From positions 1 to 28,894 of the forward strand of contig CAMYKW010000038.1 of assembly GCA_947259175.1 (NCBI GenBank): DNA of 28,894 bases, given 5' to 3'. This stretch comes from an uncultured Gammaproteobacteria bacterium. GTDB lineage: Bacteria; Pseudomonadota; Gammaproteobacteria; Arenicellales; JAANXG01. The translations under genes and the position numbers were made by a program. The notes under the pieces are model-generated. The model had not been told where the DNA came from. It searched no databases and saw only the letters and a list, made by a program, of their open reading frames with translations. Shown one piece after another: positions 9,172 through 23,442 of the stretch. How positions within the stretch are numbered: the stretch's first letter is position 1; each line of letters opens with the position of its first letter.

Positions 9172-9924
9172 ATGTTGCTATTGGAAGACAAAATGGCGGT
9201 GGTAAGCGGCGCCGGAGCGAGCAACAGCATCGGCGCGGCCACCGCACGCGTGTTCGCCGCGCACGGCGCGCGCGTGGCCCTGCTCGACGTCAACGAAGCC
9301 GCGGTGCGGGAATCCGCCGCGGCGCTAGGCGAACCGCATCGCGCCTTTGCCGTCGACGCCGCCGATCAGCTTCAGTGCCAACAGGCCGTGGCCGATATCG
9401 TCACCGCGTTCGGTCGCATCGACATCCTGGTCAACAGCGTCGGTGTCGTCCACGGCACGCGGATACTCGATATCACCCAGCAGGAATATGACCAGGTCCT
9501 AGACAATAATCTGCGCGGCAACTTCCTGCTGTCGCAAGCGGTGCTGCCGCACATGAAGTCGAGAAAAGCCGGCAACATCATCTGCGTCTCCTCGATCGCC
9601 GGCCAGAGCGGCGGCGGGGTTTTCGGCAGCTCGCACTACGCGGCCGCCAAGTCGGGCATCTTCGGACTCGCGAAGGCGCTGGCGCGGGAGCTCGCCGCGG
9701 AGGGGATCCGCGTGAACGCGGTGGCCCCGGGTCCGGTGGACAACGATTTCACCAAGGGCCGCATGACCCGGCAGATCAAAGACGACCTCGCCGCCAAGGT
9801 GCCGCTGGGGCGTCTGGGCACGCCGGATGACGTCGCCAACGCCTGCCTGTTCCTGGCCTCGGACCTGTCCAGCTACATCACCGGCATCGTGTTGGACGTG
9901 AACGGCGGTTTGTTGATCCACTGA
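9172..9924 (+). CDS. Short-chain dehydrogenase/reductase (FabG-like 3-oxoacyl reductase family)
   Basis: Catalytic tetrad region (SSIAGQSGGG...YAAAKSG), the NNLRGNF and PGPVDNDF motifs, and IVLDVNGG at the C-terminus. The nucleotide fold is AVVSGAGASNSIGAATARVFAAHGARV. An alternative start is ATG 9193. Confidence 0.85.
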   Translation: MLLLEDKMAVVSGAGASNSIGAATARVFAAHGARVALLDVNEAAVRESAAALGEPHRAFAVDAADQLQCQQAVADIVTAFGRIDILVNSVGVVHGTRILDITQQEYDQVLDNNLRGNFLLSQAVLPHMKSRKAGNIICVSSIAGQSGGGVFGSSHYAAAKSGIFGLAKALARELAAEGIRVNAVAPGPVDNDFTKGRMTRQIKDDLAAKVPLGRLGTPDDVANACLFLASDLSSYITGIVLDVNGGLLIH

Positions 9925-9966
9925 CCGCCGGGACGTCAACCGGCCCGTCGAAACCCTGTCTTGCAG

Positions 9967-9982
9967 GCGCCCCGCCGGGCGC
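9967..9982. terminator. GC hairpin GCGCCC-CGCC-GGGCGC between the convergent SDR and soxZ genes, followed by GGCGTTTAC. Possible bidirectional terminator.
   Basis: A 6-bp stem with a 4-nt loop, read directly. It lies within 45 nt of both stop codons. Confidence 0.3.
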
Positions 9983-9987
9983 GGCGT

Positions 9988-10311
9988 TTACACCACTTCT
10001 ATCCGCGCCTGTTTCTCGATGGCGCTGCCGTCTTCGCCGGTCCACAGGAAGCGGAAAACGCCGCTCTCGGCGATACGGGCGTGGAACGACAGATAGGGAT
10101 CCGACGCGGTTCCGGCGTCCAGGTCCGCGCGAAACACCTCGCGGCCGTTGAACAGGCACACGAACCGGCCCGCCAACGCCTTGGGCACCGCCTTTCCGTC
10201 GAGGGTTCGCCGCCACCCGGATTCCATCGGATGGTTGAGCTTGGTCATCAGGCGAACGACTTCGTTTTTGGCCGCCGTGCGCGGCGCCTTTACGTGAATG
10301 GAGTTTCTCAT
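9988..10311 (-). CDS. soxZ: SoxZ sulfur-carrier complex subunit
   Basis: HPMESGWRR and DPYLSFHA motifs and a length typical of SoxZ. ATG 10311 overlaps the soxY stop (TAATG) and has a GGGAG RBS. An in-frame ATG at 10320 is an alternative start. Confidence 0.85.
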   Translation of the reverse strand: MRNSIHVKAPRTAAKNEVVRLMTKLNHPMESGWRRTLDGKAVPKALAGRFVCLFNGREVFRADLDAGTASDPYLSFHARIAESGVFRFLWTGEDGSAIEKQARIEVV

Positions 10312-10754
10312 TATCCGCATGCTCCCGCGCCGCCGGTTATCTTGCAGCGCGCCTTACCGATACGAACGCTGCCGTCACTCATCTGGGCAGCGGCGACCAC
10401 GATTTGCGTCTTGATCAGGCGTATGCGTGTCGAGATCTCCGCCTTGCCGTTGGCCGGGCTGAGATGAAACGAAGCGATGGCCGGTGTCGGGTTGCGTTCT
10501 GCGACCACGTGGATGGCCTTGACGTGGTCGTCTTCGGTCATCGGGCTTTCGACCGAAATCCGCATCGGTACATGACGCGCCTGGTCGGTCACCGCCGGCA
10601 GGGTGATGGTGACACCGCCTTTCAGCTGTTCGGCGCCTCCCGTCAATTTGGCCAACAGTTGCTTGGCTTCCCGCGGGGCGGCTTCGGTGTCGCGAAGCCA
10701 CCCGGCCGCGGACAGGGCAACCATCCACAGCAGCAGCTCGCGTCGACTCAACAT
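10311..10754 (-). CDS. soxY: SoxY sulfur-carrier protein (TAT signal) with an atypical C-terminal motif
   Basis: MLSRRELLLWMVALSAAGW is a twin-arginine signal. The LTGGAEQLKGGVTITLP...STRIRLIKTQIVVAAAQMSDGSVRIGKA backbone matches Paracoccus SoxY. The C-terminus reads CKITGGAGACG instead of the canonical VTIGGCGG. The track ORF has a spurious 68-aa extension. Confidence 0.85.
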   Translation of the reverse strand: MLSRRELLLWMVALSAAGWLRDTEAAPREAKQLLAKLTGGAEQLKGGVTITLPAVTDQARHVPMRISVESPMTEDDHVKAIHVVAERNPTPAIASFHLSPANGKAEISTRIRLIKTQIVVAAAQMSDGSVRIGKARCKITGGAGACG

Positions 10755-10786
10755 GGTGGGGTGTCCTCGGAACTGTTCATGGGTTG

Positions 10787-12355
10787 TTAGGGCCTGTTTT
10801 TCAGATACACGACAGCACGCAATCCGCCGTGCGCAATCACAACGATCAGGGCGATTAGCGCCAGGGCGTAGCCGATGCGGTCGATCCACGGATCGGCATC
10901 GCGCCCGGGGATGTAAACGCCCGCCACGTGTTGCAGACGGCCGTTGTTGCTGTGGCACTCGCCGCAGCGCAGCGCCTCATCGGCCGGCGCCACCATGTGG
11001 GTGATGGGCCAGGACATCTCGGTGGTGACGAATCCGTAGCTGCCGCTGTAGGTGCGGTCAACCGCCTGCATACCCGCGGCGATGGATCGATCCCAGTTCA
11101 GCGTCTTCCAGTAGCCTTGTTTGGTGGTGGTCAGCGGCGTCACCAGGGTCTTCGATTCCACGTCGTACGGCTGCTTGCCGCGCATCACCTTCACCGGCCA
11201 GATGCGCGTGTCCCGCGCTCCCGGCTCGCCGAGGAAGCGATTGATCGGCACTACGCCGTTCGGGTCGATGCGGTCGTCCCGCAGGGTGTAATGCACCGTG
11301 CCGTTGAACCAGCGGTACTCCGGCGCCTGGTGCTTGGCCCACAAGAAGTCTCCCTTCTTCGAGTTGTAGACCTCCAAACCGTTGGCGTCTTCTCTTGAGA
11401 GCTGTTTGCCGTCGGCGCCGAGCTCGCCCGCGGTGGACCAGTCCCACCACATCTTGGTGGCGTAGTCGCCGCGGGAGAACGCCGGGATGTGGCAGGTCTG
11501 GCATGCGATCCTGGCCGTGTGGTCGTTGAGCTTGGGCGTCGAATCGTGGGGCGCCGCGCCGTGGCATGCGCGGCAGGTGGTGCGGTCGCTGCCCGCGCGG
11601 CCCGGCACGCCGACATCCGCGTTATCGACCGCCGTAGGCGTGTAGCGGCTCCCTTTGACCTCGTGCCGGGTTGCGGTATGGCAGGTGGAGCAGGTGAAGT
11701 TCAGCCCTTCCGCATCCATGTGCACATCGACGAAATAATCCGGATGCGCCAGGGTGGGGTCGATGTCGCCGTGCTTCACCGCCTTGGCGCCGCCGCCGGC
11801 GAAATGACAGGTGCCGCAGGTGCGCCGACTCGTCGGTCCGACCTTCTGGGCGAACTGCTCCAGCTTGAGCCGCCGCTTGCCGGGATTGCGCAACTTCTCA
11901 CGGGAATAGAGCCCGGTGGTGTCGTGGCATACCAGGCAATCGACGTGTTCCTCGGAGGCGAAATCGAAGCTGCCGTCGGTCCACCCGTAGCCGATGTGGC
12001 ACTTGGTGCAGGCCGCCATGTTCGGGGCCGCGGCGATGCAGAAGTTGTTCACCACATGTCGTTTGCCCAGCCGCTGGCCGGTCGCCGGGTTGTCGTATTC
12101 CCAGGTCCAGTGCTTGGTCCGGTGGAGCTGTTTGGCGGCGTTGGTGTGACAAGCAAGGCACGCCCGCGTCACCTCGGGGCCCGATGCGAATTTGACCTTG
12201 AGCTCGTCGAACTTGCTGTGATCCGCCGTCGACGAATGCGGCCCGGCGGCTGCGTGCACCGGCGTCGTGACGCTGACCAACCACATCACGATCAGCGACG
12301 CACACAAACGCAAGACCGACGCTTTGAAGTCCGAGTGATTAACTGTTTCGCGCAT
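10787..12355 (-). CDS. Octaheme c-type cytochrome (OTR/ONR-sized, 8 CxxCH) with an N-terminal signal peptide and a C-terminal hydrophobic anchor
   Basis: Eight CxxCH motifs (CLACH, CTKCH, CLVCH, CGTCH, CSTCH, CRACH, CQTCH, CGECH). The signal peptide is LRLCASLIVMWLVSVTTPVHAAA. The C-terminal segment is IGYALALIALIVVIAHGGLRAVVYLKNRP. Confidence 0.85.
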   Translation of the reverse strand: MRETVNHSDFKASVLRLCASLIVMWLVSVTTPVHAAAGPHSSTADHSKFDELKVKFASGPEVTRACLACHTNAAKQLHRTKHWTWEYDNPATGQRLGKRHVVNNFCIAAAPNMAACTKCHIGYGWTDGSFDFASEEHVDCLVCHDTTGLYSREKLRNPGKRRLKLEQFAQKVGPTSRRTCGTCHFAGGGAKAVKHGDIDPTLAHPDYFVDVHMDAEGLNFTCSTCHTATRHEVKGSRYTPTAVDNADVGVPGRAGSDRTTCRACHGAAPHDSTPKLNDHTARIACQTCHIPAFSRGDYATKMWWDWSTAGELGADGKQLSREDANGLEVYNSKKGDFLWAKHQAPEYRWFNGTVHYTLRDDRIDPNGVVPINRFLGEPGARDTRIWPVKVMRGKQPYDVESKTLVTPLTTTKQGYWKTLNWDRSIAAGMQAVDRTYSGSYGFVTTEMSWPITHMVAPADEALRCGECHSNNGRLQHVAGVYIPGRDADPWIDRIGYALALIALIVVIAHGGLRAVVYLKNRP

Positions 12356-12445
12356 ATCGATCACCACAATCGTCCGCCGTCAGGGCCCGGCCACAAACCC
12401 TCTCCGGGCCGGGCTCATCGAAGTTCAGAAAGTTCAGATCAACGT

Positions 12446-13573
12446 CTAGTCCGGAGGCGAGGCCGTGGGTATGCTGCCGTCCTTGTGGAACTGCACGTTG
12501 GCGTCGAGGAAGTAGACCTCGAGGGCGTCGCGCTCCAGTTTGACGATGTCATAAGCTTCGCCGCCGCGTGCGCCGGTGGAGCAGAAAAAGATGATGGGTT
12601 TATCCGCAGGCAACTCACCAACCTTGTCTTGCAGGTCGTCGACCGCCATGACCACCGCCTTGGCGTAGGTCCCATCGGCCTCCACTTCTTCCGGGTCACG
12701 CACATCGTACCAATGGAATTGGTCGGAGTGGTTTTTGATCAGGTTGTTGAACGAGGCGATGGTGATGATCCCGGCCTCTTCACCGGTTTCAATCTTGGCC
12801 GCGTCCGATGGGCTCGCCGCCGCCTTCGCGAGTCCTCCCGCGGCGCCGTATTCCGCCTTCCAGTTCGGATAGCCCGCCTGGAACAGCTTGACGTTGGTGT
12901 AGCCTTGGGCCACGGCCTTGGCGGCGGACTTGGGGCTCAGCGGGCACTTGTAGCCGCCGCAGTAATAGATGAGTTCGGTGGCTTTATCGGCCGGCAGCAT
13001 GTTCAGCTTGGCGTCGAACTCGCGGTTGGAGACGTTGATGGCGCCCGGCACATGGCCCTTTTTGAATTTGCGCGCCGGTCGGGCGTCGACGATGACGGCG
13101 CCGGAAGGCTTATCGACCAGTTTCTTTACATAAGCGGCGCTCACGCCGGTAACGCGTCCGGATTTTTTCCACTCGGGGTAGCCGGCGGCGTACACCTTGA
13201 TGTTGGTATAACCCAGCGCCTCCGCCTTCGCCGCCGACTTGTGGCTGAGCTTGCACTTCAGGCCGCCGCAATAAAAAATCAGCAGCGTCGACTTATCTTC
13301 GGGCAATAGGTGCGTCAGTTTGTCGAACTGGCTGTTGGAGATGTTGATGGCTGGAACGATGTGCCCCTTGTCGTATTTCCTCGCCGGCCGCGAATCGATA
13401 ATCAACACATCGTCTTTTTTCGGGACGGTGGCGTACTGGCTGACGAACTCCGTATCCACGATGTGTTTGTATTGCGCCGCGGTTTGCTGTTGGGTGTCCG
13501 CCGCGGCCGGGAGCGCCGGCACCGCGAGCAGACAGATCAACGCGGCGGTATACAGTGATGTTGCTGGTTTCAC
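12446..13573 (-). CDS. Periplasmic triple-rhodanese (sulfurtransferase) domain protein
   Basis: The GTG start gives MKPATSLYTAALICLLAVPALPAAA (signal), with GAGG 9 nt upstream. There are three rhodanese modules with active-site loops FYCGGLKC, YYCGGYKC and FFCSTGARGG. Confidence 0.85.
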   Translation of the reverse strand: MKPATSLYTAALICLLAVPALPAAADTQQQTAAQYKHIVDTEFVSQYATVPKKDDVLIIDSRPARKYDKGHIVPAINISNSQFDKLTHLLPEDKSTLLIFYCGGLKCKLSHKSAAKAEALGYTNIKVYAAGYPEWKKSGRVTGVSAAYVKKLVDKPSGAVIVDARPARKFKKGHVPGAINVSNREFDAKLNMLPADKATELIYYCGGYKCPLSPKSAAKAVAQGYTNVKLFQAGYPNWKAEYGAAGGLAKAAASPSDAAKIETGEEAGIITIASFNNLIKNHSDQFHWYDVRDPEEVEADGTYAKAVVMAVDDLQDKVGELPADKPIIFFCSTGARGGEAYDIVKLERDALEVYFLDANVQFHKDGSIPTASPPD

Positions 13574-13784
13574 GACAAGTACCTCACTCAATCTGTGCGT
13601 CCCTTCGGGGTGGACTATCCCAGGATTAATAGGCGTTAAATTATATAAGAATATAACCAAATAGCTTTGATCGAGGTCAATGAACGCGGCGATCGCAAGC
13701 GGCTCCGATGACGACGGTCCGCGCCGTTCGTCCATCCCGATAGATCAGGTAAACTGCTCATCGCGATCCAGGAAATGAGTGGTT

Positions 13785-14378
13785 ATGAAACACGAATACA
13801 AGCCCAGGTTTTATGTCCCGCTGCAGGCGGGAATCACCTACACGCGGCCGCAGCCCGCGGCGGACTATGTGCACCTCGACAACCCGGCGATCGATGTCAT
13901 GACGGACTTTCGCGACGTGGTGCCCAGGACGACGAAACCCTCGGTGCCCATCGACGACGCTCTGGAAGCGATGAAACAAAAGGGCGTGCGCTCGCTGCTG
14001 GTCACCGGGGAGAACGACGACATCATCGGCGTGGTGACCGCACAGGACATCCAAGGTGAAAAGCCGATTAAACTCTCCGAGGAAACCCGAATCGCTCACG
14101 CGGCCATCACCGTCGAGCACGTGATGACGCCGCAGTCCGAACTTTCCGTTTTGAAAATGATCAGCGTCGAGGAAGCGCAAGTCGGCCACATCGTGGAGAC
14201 CTTGCGGGAACTGAAAAGACAGCACCTGCTGGTGGTGGATGTCAATGAAGCGACCGGAGAGCAATGCATCCGTGGCATGTTTTCGACCAGCCAGATCGAC
14301 AAGCAAATGCATAAGGACCCCGACGACGAGATCGCATCAGCGGAATCCTTGGCGGAAGTCGTTCAGACCATGGGTTGA
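13785..14378 (+). CDS. CBS-pair domain protein
   Basis: Two CBS motifs (VRSLLVTGENDDIIGVVTAQDI and QHLLVVDVNEATGEQCIRGMFSTSQI). ATG 13785 follows a GAGTGG RBS. Confidence 0.8.
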   Translation: MKHEYKPRFYVPLQAGITYTRPQPAADYVHLDNPAIDVMTDFRDVVPRTTKPSVPIDDALEAMKQKGVRSLLVTGENDDIIGVVTAQDIQGEKPIKLSEETRIAHAAITVEHVMTPQSELSVLKMISVEEAQVGHIVETLRELKRQHLLVVDVNEATGEQCIRGMFSTSQIDKQMHKDPDDEIASAESLAEVVQTMG

Positions 14379-16940: not shown

Positions 16941-18161
16941 TCAGTTTCCGAAGTCGTCGAGCAGGATGTTTTCCTCATCCACACCGAGGTCATCCAACAG
17001 TTTGATGACCGCGGCATTCATCATCGGTGGGCCGCACATGTAGTATTCGCAGTCCTCGGGCGCCGGGTGTTGTTCGAGGTACTCCGTATACAATACCTCA
17101 TGGATAAAACCCGTCAAGCCCTGCCAGTGGTCTTCCGGTTGGGGATCGGACAGGGCCAGGTGCCAGCGGAAATTGTCGTGGGTCCGGGCCAGTGTGTCGA
17201 AGTGCTCGACATAGAAGGCCTCGCGCAGACTGCGGGCGCCGTACCAGAAGGTCATTTTGCGGCGGCTCTTTAGCCGGTTCAACTGGTCGAAGATGTGCGA
17301 TCGCATCGGCGCCATGCCGGCGCCACCGCCGATGAATACCATCTCGGCGTCGGTGTCCCTGGCGAAGAACTCGCCGTAGGGCCCGGACACGGTAACCGTA
17401 TCTCCGGGTTTCAGGTTGAAGATGTACGACGACATGATGCCCGGCGGCGCCTTGGGCGCATCAGGGGGTGGTGTGGCGATGCGCACGTTGAGCATGACGA
17501 TATCGTTTTCTTCCGGATAGTTGGCCATGGAGTAGGCGCGCAGTACCGACTCCTTGACCTCGGATCGTAGTTTGAACAGGCCGTAGCGTTCCCACTCGTC
17601 GCGGTATTCCGCCTCGATGTCGAAGCTCGCGTAGCTCAGCGTGTGCGGCGGGCACTCGATCTGGATGTAGCCGCCGGCCTTGAAGTCCAGGATCTCGCCC
17701 GCGGGGAGCTGTAGCACCAGTTCCTTGATGAAGGTGGCGACATTGTCGTTGGAACGCACCGTGCACTCCCATTTCTTCACCCCGAATATGTCCTCGGGGA
17801 TGTGGATGCGCATGTTCTGGGTCACGGTCACCTGGCACGCCAGGCGCTCGCCTTCCGCGGCTTCACGCTTGGAGATCAGCGATGTCTCCGTCGGCAGCAG
17901 CGATCCGCCGCCTTCCAGCACCTTCACCTTGCACTGGCCGCAGGTGCCGCCACCGCCGCAGGCGGAGGGCACGAAGATTCCCACATTCGCCAATGTGCCG
18001 AGCAACTTGTCGCCCGCCGGCACGGCAAGGTCGCGCTCCTCATTGGCGACGATATGCACGTCACCCTGGGGAACCAGCCGGGCGCGGACCTGCTGTATCA
18101 GTAGGGTGAGCACCAGCAGGATACCGGTGAACAAGGCGACGCTGAGTAGGATTTCCAACAT
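16941..18161 (-). CDS. nqrF: Na+-translocating NADH:quinone oxidoreductase subunit F
   Basis: Near-identity of blocks with Vibrio NqrF ([70 protein letters not shown]). The track ORF has a 182-aa false extension. Confidence 0.95.
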
Positions 18162-18172
18162 AGTTACGTCCG

Positions 18173-18781
18173 CTACAACTGAATCCCCGCCAGGCCGATG
18201 AACGCCAGGGAGATCAGGCCGGTGGTTACAAAAGTGATCCCCAAACCCTGCAGGCCTTCGGGGATGTCGCTGTATTTCATCTTCTCGCGCAGCCCGGCGA
18301 GCGCCACGATGGCGAGCGCCCAGCCGACGCCTACGCCCAGCCCATAGGCCACGCTTTCGGTAAAGGTGTAATCGCGTTGCACCATGAACAGCGAGGCTCC
18401 AAGGATGGCGCAGTTGACGGTGAGCAGCGGCAGGTAGATACCCAGGGTGTTGTAGAGCACGGGGACGAACCGGTGCAGCACGATTTCCAGAATCTGGATC
18501 ATCGCGGCGATCACCGCGATCTGGCTGAGCAGCCCGAGAAAACTGAAATCGAGATGACCCAGTCCGATCCAGTCCAGCGCACCCTGCCGGAGCAGCAGGT
18601 TGTAGATCAGGTTGTTGAGCGGAACGCTGATGCCTTCGACCACAATCACCGCAACCCCCAGGCCGAGGGTGGTCTTGACCTGTTTCGACACCGCCAGGAA
18701 GGTGCACATGCCGAGAAAATACGCCAGGGCGAGGTTTTCGATGAAAACCGAACGGAAAAAGATTTCGACAAACCCGTTCAT
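18173..18781 (-). CDS. nqrE: Na+-NQR subunit E
   Basis: [33 protein letters not shown]... is typical NqrE. A GGAGGTGGAAGG RBS sits upstream. Confidence 0.95.
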
Positions 18782-19437
18782 TGTCCTTCCACCTCCCGCG
18801 GCGCGACGATGGGCTTGAAATCCGGCTGCTCCTGCTGCTCGGGCTTCCAGCTTCTGATGCCCCACACCATGAAACCGATGATAAAAAATGCGCTGGGCGC
18901 CAGCATCAGCATCTCGTTGGGCTGAAACCAGCCGCCGTCGCGCGCCAGTTCCAGGATCTTCACTCCCATCAACGAGCCGTTGCCGAACAATTCGCGGATC
19001 GTGGCCACGAAGATCAGGATGGCGCTGTAGCCCAGGCCGTTGCCGATTGCGTCGGCGATGCTGCGGCGAACGCCATAGTTCATCGCGCACGCCTCGGCGC
19101 GGCCGAGCACGATGCAGTTGGTCACGATCAGGCTGATGTACACACTGAGCGCGCTGGCGGCGGCGGGCAGGTAGGCGGTGAGCAGCTGGTCGATCACCGT
19201 AACTGACGTGGCGATGACGGTAATCTGTACAATCATGCGCACACTGCTGGGCAGATGGTGGCGGATCAGGCTGATGGTGGCGTTCGAGATGATGAGCACC
19301 GCGGTCAGGGCCACGCTCATGATCAGCGATGAGGTGAGCGAATTGGTGATCGCCAGCGCGGCGCAGATGCCCAGCACGTGCAGCGTGAGCGGATTTTCTT
19401 TCAGCAGCGGCGTGGTGACGTATTGCTTGAGTGACAT
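18778..19437 (-). CDS. nqrD: Na+-NQR subunit D
   Basis: [18 protein letters not shown]...[12 protein letters not shown]...GNGLGY matches NqrD. It overlaps the nqrE start by 4 nt. Confidence 0.95.
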
Positions 19438-19439
19438 GT

Positions 19440-20258
19440 TCAGGAGCCCCCGTTTGCGGTGCTTGCGGTCTGGCTGGGTGGTTGTTCGCGCAGCTGATTG
19501 AGCAATGGCTGGAATCCGTGCGGACCCAGCCAGTAGTGCACCAGCGAGGTGACGGCGTCGCCGGTGATGGTCGCCCCGGTCAGCGCATCCACGCGGTGCA
19601 GCGCCGCCGGCGAGTCCGGCGCGATCCTGCCGGGGCCGACGGCGAACACCGGATCGCCGAGATCGTCGTACACTTTACGGCCCCGCCACTTGGCGAGCCA
19701 GTCCGGCCGCGTGATCTGGTCGCCGAGGCCGGGTGTCTCGGTTTGCTCGTAGAAGCTGGCGGCGGCGATGGTGTTCATGTCCCCTTCCAGGGCCAGGTAG
19801 CCGTACAGCATCGACCACATCCCGGCTCCGCGGATCGGCAGGATGATGCGCTTCAGTGCGTTTCCCTCCCACACCAGGTAAACCGTTGCGAAGCGGCTGC
19901 GGGTGCCCAGTTTCGCCAGGTCCTGGTTGGCGGGAACCGCGACTGCGAGTCGCGGATCGCCGGCGGAGCGCCGCTGGTCGAAGGTGTTCGCGTCGATGGA
20001 ATCGTCGAACCCACCCGTGTCGATATCGGCGATGCGCATGTCCAGGCTCTTGAACAGCGCCAGCATCTGTTCGTCGTCGAGTCGTTGCCCCGGTGCGACC
20101 AGTCCGGTGAGTTGCATGATGTTGCGGCTGCGCTCGAGGAGCTGATTGTTGAGATGGATGGGGCGCAGCAGCACTACGGCGGCGGACACCAAAGAGGAGC
20201 AGATCACCGCCACCAGGGCGACGACGATGACCGCCTTTCTGGGATCGTTGTTATCCAT
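19440..20258 (-). CDS. nqrC: Na+-NQR subunit C (FMN-binding)
   Basis: The [17 protein letters not shown] and ETPGLGDQI motifs and the [12 protein letters not shown] flavinylation motif. Confidence 0.95.
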
Positions 20259-21420
20259 CGGCGCCGACTTGCTGGCGCCTGCGGCGCCTTTTGATATTGC
20301 GTTCCGTCGCTATGTAATCGATCAACGGCGAGAAAACACTGGCCAGCAGGATGGCGAACAACACGCCCTCGTAATACGCCGGATTGGTGGCGCGGATGGT
20401 CACCGTCAGCGCGCCCACAATCAGGCCGAAGGTCCACCGGCCGGGGTCGGTCATCGGGCCGGCGACCGGATCGGTGGCGATGAACACCACCCCGAACATG
20501 ATGCCGCCCATCACCATCTCCCAATACCAGGGGATGGCGAACAACGCGTTCTCGGGAGCAATGGCGTTGAACAAGGTGGCGGTGACAATCAGTCCGATGA
20601 ATGCACCGGCGATGATCCGCCACGACGCGGTCCCGGTCCACACCAGGAACAGCGCCCCGATGAGGACGCCCAGCGAAGACACCACGCCGATTGGTCCCGG
20701 CTGATCGCCTATGAACATCTGCCAGAAGCTGTAGCCCACGGCGGGGATCACTTTGATCCCGCCTTCCTCTCTGACCAGCTCCAGCACCGTCGGCTGGTCG
20801 TAGCCCGCCACCGGTACCCAGGGATTCTCGCCGTACATCAAGGTGGGGTATGAGAACACCAGAAACGCCGCCCCGAGCAGCGCGGGATTGAACAGGTAAC
20901 GTCCCGACCCGCCGTAAATCAACTTACCCACCACGATGCCGAAACTCATACCCACCGCTACTTGGTACATCGGCGCGGTGGCGGGCATCAGCAGGGCGAA
21001 CAACCAGGCGATCACCAGCAGGCCCTCATCGGGCTCGGTGTTGCGCAGTTTGGCGAACAGCGCCTGCCAAAACGCGCCGACAAGTAACGCCATTGCGAAG
21101 ATGGGCAGAAAATACAACAGCCCGTGCACGAAACAGGCGACGGGGTTGTAGGCATCGAAACCGACGCCGAACTGGCGCAGCACGCCGGCCCGCCACCCCG
21201 GTACCCGCGCGAAGCCGAAATCGGCGATCGCCAGATTGGTCTGGTGTCCCAGGCTCCACGCGCCGATCAGCCACGTCGGCAGGCTGGCGATGACGAAATA
21301 ATTCCATACCCGTTGCACGTTGCTGGCGTCCCGGATGTGCGGAGCGGTGAGCGTCGATCGCTTCGACGACCAGAAGAAGCGGTCTTGCATCAAGCGGAGA
21401 TTTTTTCTGATCTCGGACAT
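20251..21420 (-). CDS. nqrB: Na+-NQR subunit B
   Basis: The LLPIFAM...LFNPALLGAAFLVFSYP...ATDPV...NPAYYEGVLFAILLA...ERNIKRR blocks match NqrB. The start ATG overlaps the nqrA stop (TGATG). Confidence 0.9.
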   Translation of the reverse strand: MSEIRKNLRLMQDRFFWSSKRSTLTAPHIRDASNVQRVWNYFVIASLPTWLIGAWSLGHQTNLAIADFGFARVPGWRAGVLRQFGVGFDAYNPVACFVHGLLYFLPIFAMALLVGAFWQALFAKLRNTEPDEGLLVIAWLFALLMPATAPMYQVAVGMSFGIVVGKLIYGGSGRYLFNPALLGAAFLVFSYPTLMYGENPWVPVAGYDQPTVLELVREEGGIKVIPAVGYSFWQMFIGDQPGPIGVVSSLGVLIGALFLVWTGTASWRIIAGAFIGLIVTATLFNAIAPENALFAIPWYWEMVMGGIMFGVVFIATDPVAGPMTDPGRWTFGLIVGALTVTIRATNPAYYEGVLFAILLASVFSPLIDYIATERNIKRRRRRQQVGADG

Positions 21421-22781
21421 CAGCCACCGCGTTCTATTTCGTTGAGGTTCATGCGCAGCGCCACCCCGTAATCCTGTTTCGCCGGGCACACGAATGAGCA
21501 CAGCGCGAGGTCTTCTTCATCCAGCTCCAGGCAACCCAGGGCCTGGGCCTGGTCGGTGTCTTCGACCAGCAATGCGCGGAACAAGGGCGACGGCAAGATG
21601 TCCAGCGGCATCACCCGGTCGAATACCTTCATCGGCAGCATGCTGGTGTAACGCCCGTTCATGGACGTATCAAAGACGATTCGTTTGCGGTGTCCGCTGC
21701 GCTTGACCAGCGCGGCGCCGGCGCTGTATCTGCGCGGCCACCAACCTAGCCAGCCGAACCTGCGCCGTTCGCCGCCCTCGCCAATGACACTCACCTGGTT
21801 GTGATAGCGGCCGAGATAGGCATTGCCGCCGGCGGCCTTGCGGCCGGTGAGCACGGACCCGGTAATCACCCGACAGGTGCCCGGCTCGTCGATTTCGCCC
21901 CTTACGAGGTCGTCGGTGGAGGCGCCGAGGCGCGTGGCCACGAGCCGGGGTTTACGCACACAGTCACCGCTGAGGGCGACCACCCGCCGGGTGTCGATGG
22001 TGCCCGAGGCCAGGGTATGCCCGATGGCGATGACATCCTGATAACCGATGTACCACACGACACGGTCGCGGCCCGCGGGATCGAGAAAGTGGATGTGGGT
22101 GCCGGCGAGACCGGCGGGGTGGGGTCCCTGGAACGCAACATGCTGCACGCGCTCCACGTCGCCCACCGCGACATCCCAGTCCGATCCGGTGCACAGGTGT
22201 ACCGGGCCGTCGGTCAATCGCGACAACACGCGCAGGCCGGTGGCGAAGGCATCGGCTTGGGGGGCGACGATTACGCGCGGATCGGCGCACAGCGGCACGG
22301 TGTCGATGGCAGTGACGAAAATCGAGCATGGCACGCCGTCTGAGTGCGGCACCCGGCTGTACGGCCGGGTGCGCAACGCGGTCCACAGTCCCGACTGCCG
22401 CAGGCGCTCCGCGAGTTCGGCGCGGTCCGCGTGTGCGATGTCATCGTCGCCCAGCGGGTCGAACATCGGCGGCGTATCGCCGCCTTCCGCGAGTTCGATT
22501 TCGATGCACTCCAGCGCGCGCCGCGCGCCGCGGTTCACCGCCACTACGGTGCCCTTGCCCGGGGCGGTGTACGGCACGCTGAGATCGCGTTTGTCGATGA
22601 ACAGCGGTTGACCCAGGTCTACCTTATCACCGGGCTTGACCAGCATCCTCGGCTTCAGCCCCGGGTAATCCCGGCCATCCAGCGCCACGCGGGCAATTTT
22701 GGGGCCGTCTACGATGGACTGCTCCGGGGCTCCGGCGATCGGGATATCCAGTCCCCTGCGGATGCGTATTGTACGTGTCAT
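21420..22781 (-). CDS. nqrA: Na+-NQR subunit A
   Basis: MTRTIRIRRGLDIPIAGAP...GPHPAGLAGTHIHFL...YLGRYHNQVSVI...LELDEEDLALCSFVCPAK matches Vibrio NqrA block by block. The track ORF has a 48-aa extension. Confidence 0.9.
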   Translation of the reverse strand: MTRTIRIRRGLDIPIAGAPEQSIVDGPKIARVALDGRDYPGLKPRMLVKPGDKVDLGQPLFIDKRDLSVPYTAPGKGTVVAVNRGARRALECIEIELAEGGDTPPMFDPLGDDDIAHADRAELAERLRQSGLWTALRTRPYSRVPHSDGVPCSIFVTAIDTVPLCADPRVIVAPQADAFATGLRVLSRLTDGPVHLCTGSDWDVAVGDVERVQHVAFQGPHPAGLAGTHIHFLDPAGRDRVVWYIGYQDVIAIGHTLASGTIDTRRVVALSGDCVRKPRLVATRLGASTDDLVRGEIDEPGTCRVITGSVLTGRKAAGGNAYLGRYHNQVSVIGEGGERRRFGWLGWWPRRYSAGAALVKRSGHRKRIVFDTSMNGRYTSMLPMKVFDRVMPLDILPSPLFRALLVEDTDQAQALGCLELDEEDLALCSFVCPAKQDYGVALRMNLNEIERGG

Positions 22782-22812
22782 CGATCTGAGCGCCGCCGTC
22801 GACTGGTGTAGA

Positions 22813-23442
22813 TTATCGCGATCTTGCCGCCAGCCTGTGCACATTGTGACAAGTTGAGCATTTGAGATCTTCGAAGGTGATGGTCGTGTCCTTGAAACGG
22901 GGGTGTTCGACTTTTCTCTCGTCATGGCAGCGGTAGCACGTCGCGTTTTGTCCTTCCTTGTCCATCATGCGGTCGGTCTCTGTGTGCAACGAATGACAGG
23001 TGGTGCAGCTCAGTAACGCCCAATCGTGTGCGCTGCTGGCGAACACCACCGCCCGCTCGCCCTCTGCATCCGGCGCGTGGCAGGCGAGGCAGGCGCGTAC
23101 CTGATCGTCCCGCGGTGAGGCTTCGGGCCCTTCGCCGAACCGAACCATGGAAGGGAAGCCCTTGCCGCCATGCGCCCGTGAGACGTGAAAGCTGCCGGGA
23201 CCGTGGCAGTCCTCGCAGCCGCGCCGGGTCATCGGATTATCGGCGCCGTGCACGCCGGTCTGGATCGTGTTGATCTTCTCGCCGGAGTGGCACACCAGGC
23301 ACCCCTGGGTGCCTTCATCGGTAAATATCGGATGACGCTTGTTGTTCTGTGAGTGTGCCAGCGGAACGCTCAAGGTAAACATCAGGCACGTGGATACGAT
23401 ACACCGTAGCCGGCGTTGGGCGGTCAATGAATTCTTGTCCAT
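22813..23442 (-). CDS. Small hexaheme c-type cytochrome (6 CxxCH in ~180 mature residues) with a signal peptide
   Basis: CLVCH, CEDCH, CLACH, CTTCH, CYRCH and CSTCH. The N-terminal hydrophobic segment is LRCIVSTCLMFTLSVPLAHS. The stop lies only 31 nt upstream of nqrA. Confidence 0.8.
   Translation of the reverse strand: MDKNSLTAQRRLRCIVSTCLMFTLSVPLAHSQNNKRHPIFTDEGTQGCLVCHSGEKINTIQTGVHGADNPMTRRGCEDCHGPGSFHVSRAHGGKGFPSMVRFGEGPEASPRDDQVRACLACHAPDAEGERAVVFASSAHDWALLSCTTCHSLHTETDRMMDKEGQNATCYRCHDERKVEHPRFKDTTITFEDLKCSTCHNVHRLAARSR

Follow-up and report, generated by a model that had tools for sequence, protein, structure and literature searches.

What does a SoxY protein carry sulfur for when the enzymes that usually work on its cargo are missing from its surroundings and the arm that should hold the cargo has been rebuilt? 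SoxYZ is the textbook swinging-arm carrier of inorganic sulfur oxidation. OTR is an octaheme cytochrome with a solved structure and a physiological role that has never been settled. The two meet on a 28,894-nucleotide stretch of DNA from an uncultured gammaproteobacterium of the Arenicellales (GenBank assembly GCA_947259175.1, contig CAMYKW010000038.1), the whole of which we call the window. Here four genes on the minus strand follow one another in the order rhd, otr, soxY, soxZ, and no canonical sox gene or Sox enzyme was found within the 28.9 kb. The answer we favor, and to which we would give a probability of about 0.6, is that this SoxY, assigned below to the class published as SoxY-S3, serves as a covalent sulfur carrier dedicated to OTR, with rhd-otr-soxY-soxZ as a self-contained periplasmic module. 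The case is built by comparing sequences and loci, and it begins with the soxY gene:

10311..10754, minus strand: soxY-S3 gene, encoding a 147-residue SoxY-fold carrier protein with a long arm (Pfam SoxY, AlphaFold2 model, Shine-Dalgarno sequence)
10314..10337, minus strand: carrier arm T140-G-G-A-G-A-C146-G147 (conserved geometry, coil in the model)
10344..10346, minus strand: Cys137 at the base of the arm, in the last β-strand, variable between lineages (cluster counts, AlphaFold2 model)
10674..10754, minus strand: twin-arginine (Tat) signal peptide MLSRRELLLWMVALSAAGWLRDTEAA, with predicted cleavage before the P that follows (R4 and R5 invariant)

That the protein is a SoxY, if a non-canonical one, is near certain. 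It matches Pfam PF13501 at 1.7e-28 (99.5 bits, cut-off 28.4), which places it in the SoxY superfamily, and it finds the solved SoxY structures 2OX5 and 2OXG by sequence at 1e-16. An AlphaFold2 model built with 23 family members has a confident core and a mean predicted local distance difference test (pLDDT) score of 81. Its top Protein Data Bank matches are all SoxY chains, the best being Paracoccus SoxY 2OXG (template-modeling [TM] score 0.88, root-mean-square deviation ∼2 Å). The family named in the initial annotation of this DNA, made by a model from the letters alone, was thus the right one. Against TIGR04488, SoxY_true_GGCGG, the protein reaches 91.4 bits, below the equivalog cut-off of 125. 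Its best NCBIfam match by score, TIGR04487 (SoxY_para_1, the AACIE-arm family), gives 125.4 bits against a cut-off of 172, and its arm reads GGAGACG, not AAC[LI]E. The mechanical open reading frame spans 10311-10958. Translation most likely begins at the ATG of position 10754, which a GAGGA Shine-Dalgarno sequence precedes by 8 nt; the resulting 147-residue product is identical to database protein P0001 and falls in the length class common to all homologues. Its N terminus, MLSRRELLL..., is a twin-arginine signal; neither R4 nor R5 varies across 23 S3 sequences or a 31-sequence SoxY alignment. The closest relatives come from metagenome-assembled genomes (MAGs) of uncultured Gammaproteobacteria, at 76 to 78% identity. 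One SoxY-S3, P0004, 82% identical, carries the NCBI label 'Halobacteria archaeon'; the rest of its clade is proteobacterial throughout, and the contig looks mis-binned.

The rebuilt arm is real, and its geometry is precise. The C terminus of the protein is ...GKARCKITGGAGACG-stop, the minus-strand codons CGC TGC AAG ATA ACC GGC GGC GCG GGA GCA TGC GGA TAA giving R-C-K-I-T-G-G-A-G-A-C-G-stop, with the stop at 10311-10313, the Cys146 codon at 10317-10319, and the Cys137 codon at 10344-10346. The initial annotation had translated this correctly and had seen that the cysteine was penultimate; counted from its first cysteine, the motif covers 10311-10346, one base more than the span 10311-10345 it gave. 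A homologue search with the window SoxY returned 120 clusters, 71 of which end K-[IV]-x-x-G-x-G-[GA]-C-G; the next group carries the canonical VTIGGCGG, and a few are of the AAC type. Run as an alignment against diverse SoxY sequences, the comparison thus sets the long arm apart as a distinct, conserved group. Measured from the MSDG motif, the carrier cysteine stands at +22 with one residue after it in every one of the 71 long-arm clusters, and at +20 with two residues after it in the 41 canonical clusters. What had been read as an insertion of AGA is indeed a remodeling, of a slightly different form: two residues are inserted before the cysteine, and one terminal glycine is lost. HMMER alignment against 2OX5 and 2OXG places the two-residue gap in the arm itself (KITGGAGACG versus KVTIG--GCG). 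G144, C146, and G147 are invariant in the SoxY-S3 alignment, and in the AlphaFold2 model the last β-strand occupies residues 130 to 139 and the tail, residues 140 to 147, is low-pLDDT coil.

The DNA beneath the arm has been watched over by selection. At all 30 long-arm loci, the window and 29 on other contigs, the reading frame is preserved and the last glycine is followed at once by the stop, and the glycine, alanine, and cysteine codons of the arm carry many synonymous differences. Because frame and stop stay constant in the face of this synonymous variation, the arm codons are under purifying selection.

The second cysteine is a different matter. Cys137 is present, as the initial annotation said, although nine positions upstream of Cys146, with eight residues between, and not seven residues upstream; the idea attached to it, a general disulfide or persulfide relay, was not supported. 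At this position (−11) the 71 long-arm clusters have Cys in 49, Ser in 20, Ile in one, and Thr in one. By lineage, Thiodiazotropha has Ser here, a Magnetococcales genome has Gly, one locus (L093) has Val, and several alphaproteobacterial loci, Afifella included, have Thr. In the model the residue lies within the last β-strand, outside the flexible arm. Since it varies across the family, Cys137 is dispensable for SoxY-S3 function, and a two-cysteine relay as a family feature finds no support.

Who, then, is the partner of this arm? We assembled loci by scanning one genome per GTDB species with a SoxY-S3 profile and by tblastn with the window proteins, added further loci from an OTR-seeded metagenome scan, and took the SoxB probe from a canonical locus. 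The two kinds of arm keep quite different company:

Long-arm loci (n = 30): OTR at 30, SoxZ at 30, rhodanese (RHD) at 29, SoxB at 0
Canonical-arm loci (n = 62): OTR at 0, SoxZ at 58, rhodanese at 0, SoxB at 49

No OTR was found at any canonical- or AAC-type-arm locus in the profile scan and tblastn search. The linkage is not circular, because 16 of the 30 long-arm loci were recovered independently of any OTR query (15 by SoxY queries, plus the window), and all 16 have OTR, SoxZ, and rhodanese. At every long-arm locus soxY lies immediately downstream of otr or of otr-cytochrome b, and the overall order shifts by lineage between rhd-otr-Y-Z, otr-Y-Z-rhd, and rhd-rhd-otr::cytb-Y-Z. The four genes travel together amid unrelated flanks in a Ctena symbiont/Thiodiazotropha, an uncultured marine contig, Magnetospira thiophila, Magnetococcales HHB-1, and a JGI metagenome. 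Beyond the symbionts, the long-arm family occurs in free-living or uncultured Gammaproteobacteria, Rhodospirillales, M. thiophila, Afifella, and Magnetococcales; M. thiophila, a cultured strain, carries the complete cassette. In Aestuariirhabdus sp. Z084 the contig stops just past otr, so a complete cassette there is only a possibility. At two loci, L005 and L007, from MFD03804 MAG contigs, otr and rhd seem split or truncated by frame breaks, possibly the product of assembly indels; soxY and soxZ show no such damage. In one MAG the S3 cassette (L018) exists alongside a canonical soxYZB locus (L076), so the S3 cassette is an additional system and not a replacement of canonical sox.

The evolutionary record of OTR points the same way. 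In a neighbor-joining tree of 99 OTRs, for part of which SoxY linkage could be evaluated (28 linked, 39 unlinked), all 28 SoxY-linked OTRs group in a single clade, from which each of the 39 evaluable unlinked OTRs is excluded. Because the linked OTRs are monophyletic, SoxY-S3 and SoxZ were recruited once to an OTR lineage and then co-inherited across Gammaproteobacteria, Alphaproteobacteria, and Magnetococcales. Comparative genomics in this way strongly favors the octaheme, rather than SoxXA/SoxB, as the partner of the carrier, which is what the initial annotation had proposed. The two outcomes it had named as fatal to that proposal both failed to appear: there is no sequencing error, and the variant never occurs in canonical sox operons. 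The idea itself is not new, having already been put forward by Sudo et al. in 2024.

How might such a module work? Cys146 would carry persulfide or thiosulfonate adducts, and the two extra residues would fit the arm to reach the OTR active site, its Lys-ligated heme 2 and a conserved cysteine nearby. There OTR would make or break the carrier-Cys-S-S(-SO3) bond in a two-electron reaction, a protein-bound version of the tetrathionate/thiosulfate couple, and so take a role like that of SoxXA. The rhodanese would load or unload sulfane sulfur. Electrons would be exchanged with the membrane, in many relatives by way of a fused or adjacent cytochrome b, which occurs at 19 of the 29 other S3 loci and at 59 of 70 unlinked OTR loci. 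That link suggests a reductive, quinol-driven direction, in keeping with a tetrathionate/thiosulfate couple more positive than ubiquinone. The hosts, however, are sulfur oxidizers, and the flow may also run the other way. Somewhat more tentatively, at a little under even odds, we would go a step further and propose that this one OTR subclade has as its physiological substrate not a free oxyanion but sulfur attached covalently to the SoxY-S3 long arm.

Several things weigh against a carrier dedicated to OTR. Co-localization and co-inheritance are no proof of physical interaction. Close OTR relatives function without SoxYZ (L088 and 38 other evaluable loci), so OTR catalysis does not inherently require the carrier. 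Only four OTR columns set the linked clade apart: P204, F212, D301, and E332, in the numbering of open reading frame 10787-12367, each at least 90% conserved in linked OTRs and shared by at most 10% of unlinked ones. We regard them as candidate specificity or docking positions. A search of the 28.9-kb window for cytochrome b, the partner seen in relatives, found none. Finally, arm signatures are diverse across the SoxY superfamily, which at 50%-identity representatives has ∼2,600 members and many arm variants, S3-like arms being only a handful among the best 150 representatives. With diversity that wide, a variant arm alone is weak evidence for new chemistry.

The OTR relatives without a carrier deserve a closer look, for they also bear on what else the cassette might be doing. 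Most OTR loci without SoxYZ have a cytochrome b after otr, and they often also encode the same rhodanese, a small monoheme cytochrome c, and YeeE-like transporters. Because these unlinked sister loci carry YeeE-like transporters and the same rhodanese, the OTR group as a whole is sulfur-related. The small cytochrome c stands directly after otr-cytochrome b in sister loci without soxYZ. It is ∼130 residues long, has a CTSCH or CTACH motif, and keeps a conserved cysteine two residues from its C terminus (...DGDxPASCS); we saw it at L110:4764-5189, L117:5394-5948, L119:7349-7912, L155:5330-5800, L166:7140-7643, L124:7252-7650, and L158:7121-7519. YeeE/YedE-like transporters and the same triple rhodanese often follow it, and it occurs in six SoxY-S3 loci as well; a search of the window for it found none. 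With its C-terminal cysteine, this protein could be an alternative carrier in loci that lack SoxY.

Such loci speak for the rival we take most seriously, unlikely as we think it is. Perhaps SoxY-S3/SoxZ works with the triple rhodanese alone, as a periplasmic pair for buffering or trafficking sulfane sulfur, while OTR, merely co-regulated, acts on free tetrathionate, thiosulfate, or nitrogen oxides. Many sister OTR loci do have cytochrome b, with or without the rhodanese, and no SoxYZ, and in vitro the Shewanella enzyme can reduce tetrathionate, nitrite, and hydroxylamine in free form (cited in PMC11237559, PMC3769277). If the rhodanese were the true partner, its habits are puzzling: SoxY-S3 is never seen without OTR (30 of 30), yet the same rhodanese turns up at 22 OTR loci that have no SoxY. 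The monophyly of SoxY linkage on the OTR tree, and the placing of soxY directly after otr or otr-cytochrome b everywhere, also tell against a pair to which OTR is incidental.

A second possibility, which we consider distinctly improbable, is that SoxY-S3 is an alternative carrier for ordinary SoxXA and SoxB encoded elsewhere in the genome, the change in the arm being neutral or a matter of fine-tuning. The fold and the SoxZ partnership have been kept, and S3 genomes can carry canonical sox genes: the MAG with loci L018 and L076 is one, and Thiodiazotropha has soxB (PMC11237559). The arm is strictly conserved and distinct, however (71 of 71 clusters against 41 of 41), the protein scores below the SoxY equivalog cut-off, and SoxB is adjacent at none of the 30 loci. 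A canonical SoxY in the same genome would in any case make a second carrier for the same enzymes redundant.

More improbable still is a protective scavenger or regulator that sequesters reactive sulfur species able to poison the octaheme. It draws on analogy, the speculation of Sudo et al. about SoxYZ-S4 and methanol dehydrogenase (PMC11237559), and such a protein would have no need of a strict arm length and terminus, or of co-inheritance with one OTR subclade. That the arm is an error of sequencing or assembly in an ordinary GGCGG SoxY can be dismissed, given its presence in 71 clusters and at 29 loci on other contigs and assemblies, with synonymous variation and a fixed stop. A carrier dedicated to OTR is the reading we are left preferring.

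The neighbors of soxY in the window, all on the minus strand, fit the module in varying detail:

9988..10311, minus strand: soxZ, the partner gene, 107 residues from the ATG at 10311 (Pfam SoxZ, 1.3e-17)
10787..12355, minus strand: OTR-family octaheme c-type cytochrome, with a Sec signal peptide and a C-terminal transmembrane helix
12446..13573, minus strand: periplasmic triple-rhodanese protein, 375 residues from the GTG at 13573 (three Pfam rhodanese domains, GAGG Shine-Dalgarno sequence, signal peptide)

The soxZ ATG overlaps the soxY stop (TAATG), an arrangement that makes for translational coupling. Like its partner, the SoxZ stays below the curated score, with 58 against the SoxZ_true cut-off of 76, and the SoxZ motif HPME[ST]GWR is conserved. 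The octaheme cytochrome scores 580 bits against TIGR04315 (cut-off 375) and matches Shewanella 1SP3 at E = 6e-117, with ∼50% identity over 430 residues. Its eight CxxCH motifs and the equivalents of Lys56 and Cys64 (in LGKRHVVNNFC) are invariant in the 11 linked OTRs we aligned; Lys56 of OTR is the ligand of heme 2 (PMC3769277). The last ∼40 residues of the window protein lie beyond its homology to the 1SP3 chain, and here it continues into the C-terminal transmembrane helix, which has a conserved histidine. All OTRs of this group end in such a helix, with conserved His and Arg (..GV.AHG.LR..; window 10787-10900, L001:7304-7973, L088:7613-8209). In Thiodiazotropha, Magnetococcales, and Aestuariirhabdus the helix runs into a fused cytochrome b (PF01292), and in many unlinked loci cytochrome b is a separate downstream gene.

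The rhodanese retains its catalytic cysteine loops, CGGxKC in domains 1 and 2 and the classical CSTGARxGE in domain 3. The loop of the first two domains, YCGGxKCxLSxKSA (CxxxxC), has the spacing of UxxxxU in the selenoprotein TsoB (NF045694, the best NCBIfam match). The literature on TsoB and the Tso selenoproteins offered this match of loop spacing only, with no functional data found. A 2026 review lists a selenocysteine (Sec)-containing member of the OTR family TIGR04315.

Outside the cassette the window turns to other business. Its flanks are unrelated to sulfur metabolism: an SDR protein, a methyltransferase, a two-component system, CBS and GGDEF proteins, and an NQR-like cluster. A scan of 9800-14100 for promoters and terminators gave one promoter-like site, within the rhd coding region and no more than expected from shuffled sequence, and no terminator-like sites. 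The NQR-like cluster (window 16941-23442, minus strand) comprises NqrA domains (21420-22925), an NqrB/RnfD-like protein (20251-21501), an FMN_bind protein (19440-20258), an Rnf-Nqr membrane subunit (18778-19437), and an NqrF-like 2Fe-2S/FAD/NAD protein (16941-18707). Immediately before it comes an NrfB-like multiheme cytochrome c (22813-23442), an unusual neighbor for NQR.

Why should any of this matter? If SoxY-S3 does serve OTR, then rhd-otr-soxYZ would be a carrier-based sulfur redox pathway independent of SoxXA/SoxB and linked to the membrane and quinones; OTR, whose role in vivo has been unclear since 2004, would gain a defined substrate; and SoxYZ carriers would have been recruited to a second, unrelated class of heme enzyme. 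A strictly co-inherited module of OTR, SoxY-S3, SoxZ, and rhodanese turns this into a concrete, testable hypothesis for SoxYZ and OTR alike. With two more residues before the cysteine and one fewer after it, the arm offers a simple handle on specificity. Chemosynthetic symbionts and marine Alpha- and Gammaproteobacteria have the family, and its cultured carriers make experiments feasible.

Known systems provide the yardstick, and the nearest is very near. Sudo et al. (2024, mSystems) described six swinging-arm signatures, among them SoxY-S3, encoded after otr and before soxZ on an island that also contains rhd (PMC11237559). They described it as unique to lucinid symbionts, and they reached the same qualitative suggestion that we favor here (PMC11237559). 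Both the variant and its synteny were thus published in 2024; new in our analysis are the wider taxonomic distribution, into Alphaproteobacteria and Magnetococcales, and the comparative rigor. Searches of the literature turned up no further paper that connects OTR with SoxY; PMC4989316 and PMC5728499 mention an octaheme and SoxY in irrelevant contexts. We assign the window protein to SoxY-S3 because the Thiodiazotropha/Ctena-symbiont proteins fall in the same clade and have the same arm, the match to the signature being drawn from the symbiont sequences. The lucinid-symbiont proteins (Candidatus Thiodiazotropha; P0038 and P0041, arm KITGGAGGCG) are 65 to 69% identical to that of the window and share the order rhd-otr-soxY-soxZ. 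They differ in having Gly at −3 and Ser at −11, where the window has Ala and Cys, and in an OTR fused to cytochrome b, where the window OTR has a transmembrane anchor only.

Canonical SoxY, as in Paracoccus pantotrophus (2OX5, 2OXG; TIGR04488), shares the Ig-like β-sandwich (TM 0.88, 36-38% identity), the Tat signal, the SoxZ partner, and the single invariant cysteine on a Gly-rich, flexible C-terminal arm. The window protein lacks the GGCGG end, the equivalog score, and the association with soxXA/soxB that define that family; SoxY-S3 is never beside soxXAB and always beside otr (and beside rhd at 29 of 30 loci). The nearest models for rebuilt arms are the AACIE-arm protein of TIGR04487 and the fused SoxYZ-like carriers of TIGR04557, which are likewise SoxY paralogues with remodeled arms and links to non-Sox enzymes. 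Their arm is another one, ..AAC[LIT]E.., with the cysteine at +20 and four to five residues after it, and their genomic partners are different.

On the side of the enzyme, SoxXA, the heme enzyme that joins thiosulfate to the cysteine of SoxY, offers an analogy to the proposed role of OTR, since both would be c-type heme enzymes that carry out a two-electron S-S reaction on a carrier cysteine. Their folds are unrelated, and the SoxA heme is Cys/His-ligated, whereas OTR is an octaheme with a Lys-ligated active heme, anchored in the membrane and linked to cytochrome b. The OTR of Shewanella oneidensis (SO_4144; 1SP3) has the same eight heme motifs, Lys56, and Cys64 as the window protein and is about half identical to it over the region already given. 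What the window OTR adds is a C-terminal transmembrane helix and a place in a distinct clade, the one linked to SoxY.

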